64,000 nt of DNA. Origin: a virus. Lineage: Duplodnaviria; Heunggongvirae; Uroviricota; Caudoviricetes. Every line of letters begins with the position of its first letter. Within the stretch, counting starts at the first letter, position 1. The notes beneath the pieces were generated by a model. It had not been told where the DNA came from. It saw nothing but the letters and a program-made list of their open reading frames with translations, and did no database searches. Below, in pieces: positions 3,701-52,554 of this stretch. The DNA lies in IMG/VR virus record IMGVR_UViG_3300042286_000208, positions 6,287 through 70,286 of that record, one strand, 5' to 3'. The position numbers were made by a program, and so were the translations under genes.

Positions 3701-5253
3701 TCTCCATTTATTTTTATTTTAAGAATATCGATCATATTTTGAAGTTTTGTTTTGATATCATTATTTACTTTATGTACAACATTAATATAATTAATTGGTC
3801 TGCTTTCAGATATTTGATTTATTTCATATGTATTAACAGCCTTATCTTTTTCTGCAGATATAGTCCCACTCAATGTTTTTATATCCATCAAAATAAAGAA
3901 TTTATACAGATAAATGTAGAGGTGACTTCTAATTACCTCTGACAAGCTATTTTTATAAGTTTCAAAACTGGTTGAATCATCAATAGCATCTGGTGAATCA
4001 CTTATGAAGAAATAGTTTGATACATCAACTTTAAAATCAACTAGTATATCTGGGTCTGTAATCGGATCTGTTCCGTTATATCATCTGAACATATCATTAA
4101 GAAAGCCTTCGAAAGTTGTTTCGTATGAGTCAGGAAAGTCACCTGCCACATAACTGTTTACTGAGTTTTTAAATATGATATGTAACTCATCAGTCTCAAT
4201 ACCTGTAAATTTAATTTGATCATTTACATGTTTTATAGCATCTCTAGCTAATTTTGATACATTGATATTTAGATTAGTAACGCTGTTGAAATAATTTACT
4301 GTGTTGTTTTGAGCATACTCAGTAAGATTTTTTAATATTATACCATTCAGTATGCCATTTGTTTTTATTTCCTCAAGTAAGTTTCTTAGATAACTTTTTT
4401 TAACAGAAAGAACTAGCTCTGTGTTCTCATCTATTTCTTCCTGATCATTTCCTGTTATCATACCCTTGTCGATTAATTTAGTCTTCGTCTCTTCCGATAT
4501 ATACATATTATCAATAAATCTATACATATCTCTTTCAAAGTTACTGATTATATTCGCAGAATATCCTTCAACGATATATTCTCTAGATTTATTATCCTCT
4601 GTCTCCACTAAATCAAGTTTTATTTTTGCTACGACTTGTCCATTATTTATCAGGTTATATTCTATAGGATTTGAACCATCATGTATAAGTAATTCAAAGT
4701 CCATGTTTAACACCATTGTGTTTCCGTTCAGACCTAGATTTAATATTTTACCATCCACGCTGAATTGATTACTCTTTAGTCTGAAAGATTTTACAAAATT
4801 TTCTCTATAGACATTATTAACATAAGGGATAGAAAAAGAATATGTTCTACTACTATCTTGATTTATGTTGTTAGGTGTATCAATAAGTGTTACAGTATAA
4901 GTAAACTTTTCTGATATATTAAAAATATTATATATAGCATTATCACCGATGTTAAAAACCATATATTTATTATATAGGATCATCATCTCAATAAGATCGA
5001 CAGTCGCTATAGGGTTAACAAACTGAGTGAAATATCTATAGGCATATTTATACATCATATTAGATAGATCGTTTTCTGTATAATCTTGTCTTTTTTTGAA
5101 TAAGATATTATGAGATATAAACTCAGTGAGGTTGTTTAAAGCAACCGCGTCAGAACCACTAACTTTGTAAGGCGATGTATAATTGCTCAGCGCCATTCTT
5201 ATTAAGTCTATTTTTTCATTTCTAGTTGCTTTTAAATTGTCAAAATTTGTCAT
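787..5253 (-). CDS. Large virion structural protein, probable baseplate wedge (~1488 aa, 10 TGA=Trp)
   Basis: Six track ORFs (850-5262) are in one frame and joined only by TGA; GAGGTG SD before ATG 5253; first TAA at 787-789; upstream of baseplate-type gene. Confidence 0.75.
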
Positions 5254-5392: not shown

Positions 5393-5960
5393 AAACTTTA
5401 CCCTGTGCTGTTTCCAGGGTTATCCCTCTTTGAACAGTGAGTGACGGCAGCATTTATCCGGACATATCTGTATAGTGTTAAGTCTTCCACTAAAGCAGGA
5501 ACTCTCTTTGTAAACAATTCTGTAAACTAAAACTTTAAAACATCGTAAACCATTTTGTAAACTAAAGGTGAAGATTTTTTGATAGCACTTTTACATAAGA
5601 ACTAGATATAATCTAATCAGATCTGGTTTTGTGTCGAACCCGCTAGTGTTAGTAGCTTCATCCTCTCTCCGAATTCGAGGACTTCTTAGGAGATCTTGTA
5701 TCACAAACGTGATACACTTACTTTCAAGGATTCTCACCCTGATCTACTATATGACTTTAATCTTCTTCATATAGCTAGTTACTTCAAAGAGCAATAACTA
5801 TATGTATTCTTTCCACTGTGAATGATTACCAATTTCAGTGAGTTATATCGGGAACTCATTAACGGGATTTCTTCGAGAAATGTCCAAAGGCTAGTTAGGT
5901 TTGATATAGTTAGCACTTTTGATTTCAAAGTCACAAATAAATCATAGTTTGCTCGACTAT
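5393..5960 (-). ncRNA. Candidate large structured non-coding RNA (~565 nt)
   Basis: No ORF; many stems (GTATCAC/GTGATAC, ATTTCT/AGAAAT, TGAGTT/AACTCA, CTATATGA/TCATATAG); late motif at 5' end; ACCCTG/CAGGGT hairpin plus T run at 3' end. Confidence 0.5.
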
Positions 5961-5973
5961 AATTAATTATTCA
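5958..5973 (-). promoter_or_regulatory. Putative late promoter motif TGAATAATTAATTATA
   Basis: Exact copy of 16-mer found 17 times in intergenic positions. Confidence 0.75.
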
Positions 5974-6153
5974 AGGGGTTCAAAACAAAAAAATAAACTC
6001 AAGTATAAATCCATTTGATCAAAATAAATATATTATAAAAATAGTTTAAATTAAAACAAGGTTATTAAAAGCTTTGTTTTTTTCTTAACACCAGAGGTAA
6101 TTAATTACTAGTTGGAAAGATTTTTTCCAACTTTTTTTTTACTTAAAACCTAC

Positions 6154-6169
6154 TGAATAATTAATTATA
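6154..6169 (+). promoter_or_regulatory. Putative late promoter motif
   Basis: Exact 16-mer, heads the trigger-factor operon. Confidence 0.75.
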
Positions 6170-6176
6170 AAACATA

Positions 6177-6260
6177 AGTCATCATATTGAACGAAGAGTC
6201 TACTCAGTTTCCTCCTCCTTGATTGGGTGGATTCTTCGTTGAGTATGATGATTATAGACT
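6177..6260 (+). promoter_or_regulatory. Long leader hairpin with anti-SD loop TCCTCCTCCTT
   Basis: 20-bp stem 6190-6209/6221-6240 (with G-U pairs), loop 6210-6220, lower stem TCATCATA/TATGATGA. Confidence 0.7.
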
Positions 6261-6281
6261 AAAAAGGAGGATAAATATCAA

Positions 6282-6485
6282 ATGACTCAAATCAAAATTA
6301 TTAAAAACATCGATATTAATAAAATGGAAAACGATGTCAACTGATGATTGAAACAAAACGACTCAAAGATCAAAGTAAAGAGTGTCGAGGTTAGCTCAGT
6401 TAACAGTCAGCCACCTGCAGTAAAAGGGTTATTCATAACAACGATTACTTATGAAGAAGCATCTACGGTGATTTTACATGATTAG
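6282..6485 (+). CDS. Hypothetical protein (67 aa, 2 TGA=Trp)
   Basis: AAGGAGG SD, ATG 6282, tandem TGATGA in frame, TAG stop; missing from ORF track. Confidence 0.65.
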
Positions 6486-6497
6486 AAAAATTAAAAT

Positions 6498-7070
6498 ATG
6501 AAAGAAAAATTAGAAAGGGGTAATACCATGCCAAAAGAAAAAGAATTAGAAATGATTAGCAAAGAAACAAAACAAGCAATTGAGCTCTTTGAAAAAAGAG
6601 ATATATTAAACACACAAATGATTGAAGAGTTAGACAAACAATTAGTGTCGTCTAAATACGGTTCAGTAGGACATGTTAATAAAATCACAAGGCTATCTTC
6701 TCTAAGAAATTATAAGCTGAGACTTCAAGAAGTAATTGAGGCTTTCAAACAAATTGTCGACTATAAGTCTCTTGAAACAATTGAAGGTTACATTGTAAAA
6801 GTTCTTGAAGATTCAAAAACTAACTTAAAAACAAGCTCTACTTCTTTAGATTCTGTTGAAATATTCTCAAATGATTATATTAAATATGAAATCCTAGTTA
6901 AGACTTATAAAGAGTTAAGTGATCTATATAGCGAAGTTATTGAAGTCCTTAAAAAAATCAAAGAAACAGTAAGACCTGAGCAAGCACCTAAACAAGAACA
7001 AGAAGTACCACCAACACCCGAGCAAACCTCGGCAGTTGAACAAAAACAAACTAAAAAGGAGACAGCATAA
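6498..7070 (+). CDS. Coiled-coil hypothetical protein (start may be 6528)
   Basis: Helical E/K/L-rich ORF with Pro/Gln-rich tail; stop overlaps tig start. Confidence 0.75.
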   Translation: MKEKLERGNTMPKEKELEMISKETKQAIELFEKRDILNTQMIEELDKQLVSSKYGSVGHVNKITRLSSLRNYKLRLQEVIEAFKQIVDYKSLETIEGYIVKVLEDSKTNLKTSSTSLDSVEIFSNDYIKYEILVKTYKELSDLYSEVIEVLKKIKETVRPEQAPKQEQEVPPTPEQTSAVEQKQTKKETA

Positions 7071-8434
7071 TGAACGGAGAATTACAAGTTTATAAAAAAG
7101 ATGAATTTAATTACGTATATACAAAAACAGCAAGTCGTAAAGAATTCGCTAAAGAATTAGAAGAAATTTATAATAAACATTATAAAACAAATTATGAACA
7201 AGATGGTTTTAGAAAAGGAGAAGTACCTTTTAATCTAGCCATTCTTAATCCAAAGCTATCAGCTAGTATTTTAAAAACTGTAGCTTTAATAGATAGACAA
7301 ATTTTTGTTGAAGAAATTATTAAAGAGGTTTCAGATATTGGAAGTATCTATGATATTAAAGATGGTTCAGATCAAACTGACTTTGAAGGATTTGATCTAT
7401 CATTAGAAGATCCCGTCATTTTTCAATTAAATGTAGAATTGGCTTCGTTTGTTGATAATGTTAATTATGAAGATGCAAAAGTAGATAAAGAACTCATTAA
7501 ATCCAAACCATCAACAGAAAAAGAATTAGTTGCTCTATTTAAAGAATATAAGAAAGTAAAACAACAACAAAATAAAGCTACAAAAACATCTTATGTTGAT
7601 TTAACATTTGACGATGGCAGAGATAAAGAAAATTTAACATTCAATCTAGCTCAAAAATTTGGAGAAGATGATGAAGCTCTAAAAGTTCAAACTCATGCAG
7701 AAGTTACAGAATTAGTAATGGGTAAAAAAATCGGTGATGAATTCTCTTATGCGTTGACAGGTAAAGACGGCTCTAAACTAGATGTAAAAGCAACTATCAC
7801 TGACATTTATAGAATCAAAGAGTTAAAAGATGATGAATTTATTGAAATGTTAAAAGACCAAAGTAATGTTCCTGAAGAACAAAAAGAAGGTCTAGACATT
7901 GATAAAGTAAAGGTTATGTTTAAAGAACATCTTGAGAAGATATATCAAGATAACTACACTGAAGAAGTGCGTTCATTAACTTTTGCTGCACTCAACAATC
8001 TTACTGAAGGAATTCACTATAACGAAAACGAAATCACAAATCTGAAAAACCAGTTTACAGTCCAAGTACAAAAAATGGCAGATCAAGAAAAAACTTCATT
8101 TGCTGATTATGTAATTAAGAACTTTGGAAGTCAAAAACTGATGGAAGATTATGTAGATGCTAGTCAAAGAGCAAGAGTTCTTCAAGCAGCGATCTATAGA
8201 AAAATTGGAAAAGAAATGGGATTAGTTCCTACTTATATGCAATTAGAATCATTCGTTAAAACGTTCTTGTTCAAGTTTGATCCTACACAACTTATGGATG
8301 ATGCATTGGTACAACAAGTCAACCAACAAGTAACACAAGTACTAGCTGAACCACTTAACAGACAAAGAATTATTGAAAGTTGGGCTTCTGTTAAAGCAGA
8401 AGATATGATTAACGATCAAATCGGTTTACTTTAA
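7070..8434 (+). CDS. tig: Trigger factor (ribosome-associated chaperone)
   Basis: GFRKGEVP ribosome-binding signature near N-terminus, FKBP-like middle region, helical C-domain, 454 aa. Confidence 0.8.
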   Translation: MNGELQVYKKDEFNYVYTKTASRKEFAKELEEIYNKHYKTNYEQDGFRKGEVPFNLAILNPKLSASILKTVALIDRQIFVEEIIKEVSDIGSIYDIKDGSDQTDFEGFDLSLEDPVIFQLNVELASFVDNVNYEDAKVDKELIKSKPSTEKELVALFKEYKKVKQQQNKATKTSYVDLTFDDGRDKENLTFNLAQKFGEDDEALKVQTHAEVTELVMGKKIGDEFSYALTGKDGSKLDVKATITDIYRIKELKDDEFIEMLKDQSNVPEEQKEGLDIDKVKVMFKEHLEKIYQDNYTEEVRSLTFAALNNLTEGIHYNENEITNLKNQFTVQVQKMADQEKTSFADYVIKNFGSQKLMEDYVDASQRARVLQAAIYRKIGKEMGLVPTYMQLESFVKTFLFKFDPTQLMDDALVQQVNQQVTQVLAEPLNRQRIIESWASVKAEDMINDQIGLL

Positions 8435-26669: not shown

Positions 26670-26690
26670 GGCGAACAACCATTAATGGCT
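26670..26690 (+). CDS. nrdJ: nrdJ micro-exon 2 (21 nt, GEQPLMA)
   Basis: Restores TNPC-GEQPL-MANGS-CNLGS catalytic loop with canonical spacing. Confidence 0.9.
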
Positions 26691-26951
26691 TAACCAAACA
26701 CTTAAAAAGTGTAGGCCCTTCATGTAGTAATATATGAAGAAAACCCTTTGAATTGCTGGAAAATCTTACCAAGTAATGTTGAAGACAATCAGCAGCCAAG
26801 CCTCAATAAGAGGAAGGTTCAACGACTATCTCGAAAGAGAGTAGGGTCAAGTGACTCGAAGCGGAGGGAATCCTATTAAGGATTATGATATAGTCTGTTC
26901 TATATGGAAACATATAGAGATAAGAATAACGAACTTATCGCAACAATAAAG
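26691..26951 (+). mobile_element. Group I intron 2 in nrdJ (261 nt, no ORF)
   Basis: P1 GGCT/GGCC with U.G; GAATTGCTGGAAA, AATCAGCAGCCAAG, GTTCAACGACTA and GATATAGTC; terminal G. Confidence 0.9.
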
Positions 26952-52404: not shown

Positions 52405-52510
52405 GTAATAAGAGATAGCAATTGAGCTATCTCTTATACTAGGAGGATCATGGAAAGGAGTAACCATGACAGCAAATGTTGATATAGTAGGAAAGGAGTA
52501 AACCTACTAT
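52405..52510 (-). ncRNA. Candidate small RNA with anti-SD loops
   Basis: Hairpins ATAGTAGG-TTTACTCCTTT-CCTACTAT and TCATGG-TTACTCCTTT-CCATGA, linker TCCTCCT, 12-bp terminal hairpin; late motif at 5' end and no minus-strand gene. Confidence 0.6.
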
Positions 52511-52523
52511 AATTAATTATTCA
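52508..52523 (-). promoter_or_regulatory. Putative late promoter motif, antisense to local genes
   Basis: Exact 16-mer on minus strand. Confidence 0.75.
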
Positions 52524-52554
52524 AAATTTATTTTATAAAAGGAGATGTTATTCA

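Follow-up and report, generated by a model that had tools for sequence, protein, structure and literature searches.

A conserved leader hairpin with an anti-Shine-Dalgarno loop upstream of a trigger-factor-like operon in an uncultured TGA-recoded phage

Introduction

Phages redirect transcription in stages. For translation initiation, staged control is much less well documented; examples are T4 RegB, which cuts GGAG sites, and the proposed selection of late messages by phage bS21 (PMC9723584). The locus analyzed here raises the question why the leader of a phage operon folds into a long hairpin whose loop resembles the 3' tail of 16S rRNA, just upstream of a ribosome-binding site complementary to that loop. 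The locus lies in a 64,000-nt stretch of viral DNA (hereinafter, the window, to which all coordinates refer) taken from a 134-kb IMG/VR virus record, ~47% complete according to CheckV and with a G+C content of ~30%. The source genome is an uncultured jumbo phage with TGA recoding, and strong Shine-Dalgarno (SD) usage along with a gene for a Cse60-like protein suggests a host from the Bacillota. A sequence-only reading of the window had described a 20-bp hairpin at this position and proposed that its loop acts either in cis, via a pseudoknot or a translational switch, or in trans, as an anti-SD RNA.

Organization of the locus and structure of the hairpin

The locus includes the following features, in the order of their positions:

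6110..6141, plus strand: terminator-like hairpin and T run (10-bp stem at 6110-6132, then T9), just 5' of the promoter
6154..6169, plus strand: putative late-promoter 16-mer TGAATAATTAATTATA, in forward orientation
6177..6253, plus strand: complete conserved RNA hairpin (32 bp, 11-nt loop)
6177..6188, plus strand: A/U-rich 5' arm of the lower stem, pairing with 6242-6253; compensatory changes at most pairs; -16.1 kcal/mol
6189, plus strand: invariant mismatch G, with partner G6241, in the context UUGAA / UUGAG; candidate recognition or cleavage site
6190..6209, plus strand: 5' arm of the upper stem, pairing with 6221-6240; sequence conservation in the 12 bp beside the mismatch, covariation in the apical 7-8 bp
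6210..6220, plus strand: apical loop UCCUCCUCCUU, anti-Shine-Dalgarno, resembling the 16S rRNA 3' tail
6221..6253, plus strand: hairpin 3' arm, made up of 6221-6240 (upper), G6241 and 6242-6253 (lower)
6264..6271, plus strand: Shine-Dalgarno sequence AAGGAGGA serving the first gene, with complementarity to 8 loop nt; the ATG is at 6282
6282..6485, plus strand: first gene, coding for a 67-aa protein predicted to be Cse60-like from profile relatives and an AF2 model
6528..7070, plus strand: second gene, 180 aa, matched to no known family but syntenic in all relatives
7070..8434, plus strand: trigger-factor-like gene, 454 aa (Pfam Trigger_N, E 2.3e-6)

The positions of the late motif, the loop, the upper stem and the SD sequence had all been given correctly in the sequence-only reading. 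The 20 pairs of the stem that it reported hold as well, but the helix is longer than it recognized: beyond the G6189.G6241 mismatch, 12 further pairs follow, for a total of 32 bp. According to nearest-neighbor estimates, which apply to all folding and duplex energies given here, the plus-strand RNA of 6177-6253 has a minimum free energy (MFE) of -45.4 kcal/mol (z -6.62; 0 of 200 shuffles are as good), compared to -21.5 kcal/mol and z 0.00 for the minus strand. The stem includes seven G-U pairs, so that the hairpin exists on the plus strand only and represents an RNA-level feature; the earlier suggestion to that effect is borne out by these values and by the covariation described below.

The G.G mismatch is located 12 bp above the base of the helix and 20 bp below the loop, that is, approximately one helical turn on one side versus two on the other. 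The lower 12 bp and this invariant mismatch, both of which the earlier reading missed, point to a protein or nuclease partner. The SD sequence AAGGAGGA is unpaired in the MFE fold. There is no U tract 3' of 6253, nor in the relatives; the interpretation of the hairpin as an intrinsic terminator or attenuator was rejected, given that no U tract directly follows the stem, and so was the interpretation as an RNA thermometer.

Conservation and covariation of the hairpin

Relatives were obtained through the protein homologues of the trigger-factor-like gene product (14 homologues, 49-82% identity) and, subsequently, the contigs that encode them, on which the gene order of the operon is the same. 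The same hairpin precedes the orthologous small gene in eight other metagenomic loci, wherever the upstream DNA is present, and the nine hairpin loci (the window, L002, L005, L007, L014, L015, L013, L010 and L020, with L006 about equivalent to L005) comprise a single clade. DNA and protein searches of GenBank phages matched no relatives, and none were found when IMG/VR was scanned by protein, protein alignment and DNA patterns. The sole match of the DNA patterns in metagenomes (L017) was discarded as a chance match inside a purine-repeat region.

In an alignment of seven sequences, from which L010 and L020 were held out, compensatory changes affecting both sides are observed at 21 of the 31 pairs. 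Paired cells amount to 92.6%; sliding the partners by 1-3 columns lowers this to 36-46%, and every covariation measure exceeds the values from all 500 column shuffles. Thus, the stem, on whose conservation the sequence-only reading had made its proposal depend, is kept as a covarying structure in the eight other loci. A covariance model trained on the seven aligned hairpins (R1) scores 92.5 bits on the plus strand and 36.5 bits on the minus strand, a preference of more than 50 bits. This model detects exactly one copy of the hairpin per genome, with no second copy found in the phage or in the other loci, and recovers the held-out hairpins of L020 (E 5e-6) and L010 (E 0.011), both at the syntenic spot.

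These results bear on the trivial explanation, namely, that the element is a DNA palindrome, such as a protein-binding site or a cruciform, or else a chance hairpin. This explanation could draw on the palindromic core of the promoter 16-mer and on the abundance of inverted repeats in the region. However, the seven G-U pairs correspond to A-C mismatches on the other strand, where the z score is 0.0, and the pairs preserved by covariation are compatible with G-U pairing on the plus strand alone, as the difference between the strands in model scores shows. The outcome of the 500 shuffles likewise speaks against it, and we regard a DNA-level or accidental origin as extremely improbable.

Sequence conservation is unevenly distributed along the hairpin. 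Pairwise identity is 0.15-0.27 in the tails and 0.32-0.33 in the apical 7 bp, where all seven pairs are changed on both sides, compared to 0.75 in the loop and 0.73-0.79 in the 12 bp beside the mismatch. Both mismatch G columns show an identity of 1.0 in all seven sequences, and their context is found also in the held-out L020. The helix is 27-35 bp long across the loci, and in all nine of these CCUCCU is unpaired in the loop, while the loop lengths (~7-18 nt) and the flanks differ. The persistence of CCUCCU in nine of nine loci, while the apical stem diverges to 32% identity and covaries, implies that the anti-SD loop is the selected feature. Taken together, the alignments indicate that two sequence-specific features are kept on a generic long helix, the anti-SD loop and the pseudo-symmetric UUGAA/UUGAG G.G site, and that the hairpin is, judging by this comparative evidence, a well-supported new structured RNA family.

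Promoter, operon and gene products

The motif TGAATAATTAATTATA is present in 23 copies in the 134-kb record, and the forward copies are followed, ~15-45 nt downstream, by a ribosome site and a start codon; we infer from these sequences that it is a late promoter. The motif is also found 5' of the hairpin in L002, L005, L006, L007, L014, L015 and L020. The stem starts 7-10 nt past the motif in the window, L002, L005 and L007, directly at the motif end in L014 and L015, and ~100 nt past the motif in L010, whereas in L013 a 91-aa gene intervenes between the promoter and the hairpin. The terminator-like hairpin at 6110..6141 would insulate the leader from upstream transcription; the layout consisting of TAATTAATTA plus hairpin also occurs in L002, L007, L014 and L015.

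As stated in the sequence-only reading, a TGA-containing gene opens the trigger-factor operon. In the alignment, the in-frame TGA TGA (6342-6347) coincides with the Trp conserved in VN.WL, for which L002 and L007 have TGG, and TGA is thereby identified as a Trp codon; the assignment of the last gene follows from its Pfam match. A profile search with the 67-aa protein yielded 323 relatives, several of which, among those checked, match Pfam Spore_Cse60, and the AF2 model of this protein (pLDDT 85) resembles Cse60/DUF4177 clusters. By profile and predicted structure, this product can be placed in the Cse60 family as a remote relative. It also weakly matches Alba-like PDB structures (E 0.02-0.1, TM ~0.5); these matches were not counted as a sign of RNA binding. 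Searches of Pfam and PHROGs with the 67-aa, 180-aa and neighboring proteins gave nothing significant. The trigger-factor-like homologues share a GFRxGxxP-type motif, which we take to be the ribosome-docking signature of trigger factor; G46, F47, R48 and G50 are invariant in this motif and P53 is nearly so.

Pairing between the loop and the ribosome-binding site

As the sequence-only reading had noticed for the SD at 6264-6271, the loop can form 8 contiguous base pairs with AAGGAGGA, at a computed energy of -12.5 kcal/mol, and across the loci the pairing between loop and site involves 8-10 contiguous pairs at -10 to -17 kcal/mol. An AGGAGG-type ribosome site is kept before the small gene in all orthologous loci, which is unusual behind the late motif (AGGAG in 5 of the 21 first genes, see below), and the hairpin is located 1-20 nt from this site in nine of nine loci, even where the promoter is displaced, as in L013 and L010. 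The combination of this proximity with the retained AGGAGG site suggests some cis-linked role. Specifically, the loop could pair with the ribosome site that precedes the Cse60-like gene on the same molecule, as a pseudoknot or a switch that throttles or times translation of the operon, possibly with the lower stem breathing or being opened by a factor. We consider this explanation, the main rival of the one favored below, unlikely, mostly for reasons of geometry and energy. The linker between the stem and the site is 1 nt in L002, 3 nt in L005, 4 nt in L014, 7 nt in L015 and 9 nt in the window, and linkers of 1-9 nt reach at most 13-65 A, against the 81-98 A of the helix, in five of the seven loci; the 19-20 nt linkers of L007 and L013, alone among the seven, could reach the loop. 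Opening the lower stem costs 16.1 kcal/mol versus 12.5 kcal/mol gained, with the pseudoknot penalty not included. Furthermore, the hairpin is complete before the site is transcribed, and the linker length varies between 1 and 20 nt, unlike in true pseudoknots.

A cross table of loops by sites, compiled for locus-specific covariation, shows no diagonal signal and hence no advantage for the cognate combination; given this result, the table cannot separate cis from trans or single out a target. The cis alternative of the earlier reading did not withstand the linker and energy calculations: a cis pseudoknot on the intact hairpin is unlikely, and with both geometry and energy against cis pairing in most loci, intermolecular pairing is left. 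At the same site, pairing with the ribosome (-12.2 kcal/mol) and with the loop (-12.5 kcal/mol) would be in about equal competition.

Comparison with known RNAs and alternative functions

At gathering thresholds, Rfam 15 has no match at the hairpin, the matches within the window being a group I intron and DUF3800-XI, both elsewhere; with permissive settings, the top-scoring models at this position come from plant miRNAs and reach 15-18 bits, compared to gathering thresholds of 70-230. No Rfam family, paper or database record describing the leader hairpin was found. Nevertheless, each of its components has known counterparts, be it the anti-SD loop, the long helix of processing type or the location in a leader.

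In thermometers, riboswitch expression platforms and cis anti-SD hairpins, similarly to the present case, an anti-SD sequence is found just upstream of a complementary ribosome site. However, in all these elements the site is one strand of the helix, whereas the leader hairpin carries its anti-SD unpaired, in the loop that caps an independent 32-bp helix, and the ribosome site is neither sequestered in the MFE fold nor within reach in five of the seven loci.

The long helix itself is most reminiscent of processing sites. T7 R0.3-R1.3 and the early mRNAs of Bacillus phage SP82 carry RNase III processing hairpins. These phage hairpins have a single internal irregularity, are located in leaders or between cistrons, set the ends of mRNAs and affect translation and stability. 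The leader hairpin is similarly long, with a single internal irregularity, and contains 27-35 bp in all loci, above the ~20-22 bp of near-perfect double-stranded RNA that an RNase III substrate requires at the least. The differences are that the T7 and SP82 sites occur several per genome, whereas the leader hairpin is present once, and that, to our knowledge, those sites lack a conserved anti-SD loop.

The hairpin could serve processing or stability only, as an RNase III site, a 5' stabilizer or both, with the loop being a determinant for a protein or nuclease rather than a pairing element. Such a role would account for the near-perfect helix, given that 8-10 bp would be enough for loop display, for the invariant G.G with about one helical turn below and two above, and for the mid-stem sequence identity, which exceeds the needs of pairing. 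Small hairpins also start other late transcripts, among them those following 24023 and the motif copy that lies past the window end, at ~80,743 if the window numbering is continued; 5' hairpins are known to stabilize Bacillus mRNAs. What a processing or stabilizing role leaves unexplained is the exact CCUCCU in nine of nine loops that vary in length, and the stem, which begins 7-10 nt past the motif in the majority of loci and is remote from a promoter in L010 and L013, would be a poor 5'-terminal protector unless processed. Accordingly, we doubt that processing or stability is the whole function. No RNase III or dsRBD family is represented in the 134-kb record (~47% complete), so that a host enzyme must be assumed.

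Operons for ribosomal proteins are classically autoregulated by rRNA mimics beside the ribosome site. By analogy, the hairpin might be a protein operator, with the loop mimicking the 16S tail and the G.G serving as the binding point of a dimer, for autoregulation or sequestration; the candidate partners are a phage bS21, an operon product such as the Cse60-like protein, or a host protein that binds the 16S tail. A dimer would fit the conserved, pseudo-symmetric UGA/UGA G.G site, and the operon encodes a chaperone of a ribosome-binding type. Moreover, the phage does encode a bS21 homologue, outside the window (35.4 bits, above the Pfam cut-off). Yet the bS21 gene is ~100 kb away from the hairpin and has no similar leader, the 67-aa protein gives no more than weak Alba-like matches and belongs to a Cse60 family without known function, and the flanks of the loop vary and do not include the GAUCA found just before CCUCC in 16S rRNA. 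In view of these discrepancies, a protein operator appears rather improbable. In the ribosome, bS21 adjoins the anti-SD region of the 30S subunit (PMC9723584; PMC7797042), and phage bS21 has been proposed to enter host ribosomes and favor late phage messages (PMC9723584).

The stem of Salmonella IS200 itself sequesters the tnpA ribosome site, whereas the phage ribosome site is outside the stem, and the two hairpins differ in organism and in sequence. What makes IS200 relevant is that the processed 5' hairpin of its transposase mRNA (5'tnpA) acts in trans as a small regulatory RNA (PMC12594629). Both are long stable leader hairpins, with the difference that 5'tnpA is cut out, whereas here processing can only be presumed.

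The closest analogs of the loop are found among regulatory RNAs of Bacillota, namely, S. aureus RNAIII, RsaE/RoxS and SprX, in which, as here, a pyrimidine- or C-rich motif is located in an apical loop. RNAIII, a dual-function molecule that is both a regulatory RNA and the mRNA for a small protein, employs C-rich hairpin loops to block ribosome-binding sites and hence 30S loading, often with the involvement of RNase III (PMC8383071). The phage hairpin has no sequence or Rfam relationship with these RNAs, reproduces the 16S tail in full in its loop, as CCUCCU(U) instead of UCCC, and has a far longer stem (~30 bp). In addition, it is a single hairpin at the 5' end of a three-gene mRNA, without a terminator of its own. 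Thus, with respect to trans-acting anti-SD RNAs in general, the motif is displayed in the apical loop of a stable hairpin in all nine loci, but a separate transcript is not apparent: the promoter motif is there, but neither a terminator nor a U tract separates the hairpin from the ribosome site.

Companion elements and Shine-Dalgarno registers

The phage has another element of this kind, the existence of which near 52405 was correctly noted in the sequence-only reading; it is read on the minus strand from a reversed copy of the same promoter:

~52405-52524, minus strand: second anti-SD element; the reversed TGAATAATTAATTATA copy at 52509-52524 would drive the RNA

The RNA of 52405-52524 is predicted to form two short hairpins with ACUCCUUU in the loops, followed by free AUCCUCCUAG. 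It shares the promoter 16-mer with the leader hairpin and likewise presents CUCCU motifs within hairpin loops, but differs from it in that it appears to stand alone, has stems of 5-7 bp and three motifs, and is undetected by R1.

Ribosome-binding regions (-22..-3) were classified in a rough call of 165 genes, from which two spurious ORFs near 5779-6436 were removed and to which the gene at 6282 was added by hand, for a total of 164. The GGTG register is found in 15 of the 21 first genes behind the late motif versus 25 of the 143 other genes (Fisher p 1.2e-6), and the gene behind the hairpin is among the exceptions with AGGAG. Genes differ also in their content of in-frame TGA (1.64 versus 0.38 per gene, the higher value being that of the GGTG class). 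The GGTG register pairs with the CACC part of the 16S tail.

The mean predicted pairing energy with the loop is -10.05 kcal/mol for the AGGAG class (n=66) versus -6.74 kcal/mol for the GGTG class (n=39; Mann-Whitney p 1e-9), whereas a model 16S tail shows the reverse preference (-12.33 for the GGTG class versus -10.55 for the AGGAG class). Given the stronger pairing with the AGGAG class, a trans-acting loop would tell the two classes apart. Intergenic CCUCC/CUCCU occurrences were also listed across the genome, but this list consists mostly of reverse complements of ribosome sites on the opposite strand and was excluded from the statistics.

A hypothetical mechanism

We tentatively favor, at somewhat less than even confidence, the possibility that the leader hairpin is a trans-acting display of an anti-ribosome-site sequence, probably released by a double-strand-specific RNase. 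Trans display is favored by the presence of a second RNA with the same promoter and CUCCU loops, and by the precedents of RNAIII (PMC8383071) and 5'tnpA (PMC12594629). The mechanism that we propose combines the computed structure, strand, conservation, invariance, geometry and pairing selectivity with a presumed start site, cleavage and trans pairing. The late promoter would yield an mRNA whose leader folds into the hairpin, and the ~30-bp helix would present the loop, the core of which, CCUCCU(U), copies the 3' tail of 16S rRNA. A double-strand-specific endonuclease, most simply the host RNase III, could then recognize the helix and the G.G site. Cleavage at this site would free a hairpin RNA of ~50-55 nt (6190-6240) and leave an mRNA with a short open leader. 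The loop of the released RNA would pair with the AGGAGG-type sites of sister copies of the mRNA and of AGGAG-class, mostly non-late messages, masking them, whereas the GGTG-register sites of the late genes would be spared. The masking by the loop would add to the effect of the anti-SD small RNA of 52405-52524. With an AGGAGG site of its own, the operon would be self-limiting.

More speculatively, and in our estimate improbably, the hairpin could be part of a late translation-takeover kit, along with the anti-SD small RNA, bS21 and the trigger-factor-like chaperone. In such a takeover, the anti-SD RNAs would mask the AGGAG-register sites of host and early phage messages, while the phage bS21 and the trigger-factor-like chaperone would refit the ribosome; the late genes with TGA codons, relying as they do on the GGTG register of the same 16S tail, would escape. 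Should this be the case, the SD register would work as a code that addresses messages in time, with RNA mimics of the 16S 3' end enforcing it.

The more modest implications concern the RNA family itself. It displays the docking sequence of the ribosome in a phage that also has a second anti-SD RNA, a bS21 and a trigger-factor-like gene, and in the same phage the use of two SD registers goes along with late promoters and TGA recoding. Were the loop to mask AGGAG-type sites, the virus could sort messages by the part of the 16S tail with which they pair. Even as a plain processing or stability hairpin, it represents a covariation-supported motif suitable for Rfam-type curation and a marker for a clade of jumbo phages. 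The hairpin is short and self-contained, and can be easily moved into Bacillus reporters.

Shine-Dalgarno registers and further anti-SD elements

Across the whole record, the Shine-Dalgarno (SD) sites fall into two registers, GGTG-type and AGGAG-type. The GGTG-type is found in 15 of the 21 first genes behind the late motif vs. 25 of the 143 other genes, and the genes with such sites contain 1.64 in-frame TGA per gene vs. 0.38; away from the late-motif first genes and the TGA-rich genes, AGGAG-type sites predominate throughout the record.

Two further elements combine hairpins with SD or anti-SD motifs:

52405-52524, minus strand: candidate anti-SD RNA, with a reversed late 16-mer and loop motifs
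~G000:C1:91510-91570 (full-record numbering, outside the window), plus strand: SD/anti-SD hairpin before the gene at window-numbered 85281

The first of these is the companion anti-SD element of the sequence-only reading, a putative minus-strand RNA. A late 16-mer in reversed orientation, at 52509-52524, would drive this RNA, which contains two short hairpins with ACUCCUUU loops, an unpaired AUCCUCCUAG stretch and a 10-bp hairpin at the end. In the second element, the hairpin arms are the SD-like AGGGAGGA and the anti-SD UCCUCCCU, with the true ribosome site, AAGGAAGGAGGG, located just downstream; the entire arrangement looks like a three-part decoy/anti-SD/SD switch. There is a second such case at window-numbered ~123041, where GGAGAAGA is buried in a stem with UCUCCUCC.

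Promoter surroundings and start codon

Just upstream of the real promoter lies an additional element:

6097-6141, plus strand: imperfect promoter-core copy and terminator hairpin

The core copy, GTAATTAATTAC, adjoins the terminator hairpin, and the same arrangement is present in four metagenomic loci with a related operon (L002, L007, L014 and L015). A reversed late 16-mer is located at 5958-5973 (region 5393-5973, minus strand), and the ~700 nt between it and the 1488-aa gene starting at 5253 are gene-free.

In two other such loci, L005 (386-400) and L006, the conserved N-terminus of the Cse60-like gene lacks ATG, GTG or TTG. The frame seems to begin at AUC or AUU, 7 nt past GGAGGA; in that case, a strong ribosome site would be followed by a non-canonical start codon.

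Translation-related proteins

7070-8434, plus strand: phage-encoded trigger-factor-like protein (Pfam match)
G000:C1:115735-115965 (L021:1441-1671, outside the window), plus strand: 76-aa homologue of ribosomal protein bS21 (Pfam Ribosomal_S21)

The Pfam match of the trigger-factor-like protein is limited to the N-terminal ribosome-binding domain, and a GFR.G..P-type motif is invariant among 14 homologues. Given that no match was detected in PHROGs or GenBank phages, this protein appears to be restricted to this uncultured phage clade. The bS21 homologue scores 35.4 bits against Ribosomal_S21 (cut-off 27); its gene has a weak ribosome site, and no hairpin resembling the leader hairpin at 6177-6253 is found upstream.

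Rfam matches

Two matches in the window score above the gathering score:

26682-26917, plus strand: group I intron, 101 bits
10838-10900, plus strand: DUF3800-XI RNA, 54.9 bits
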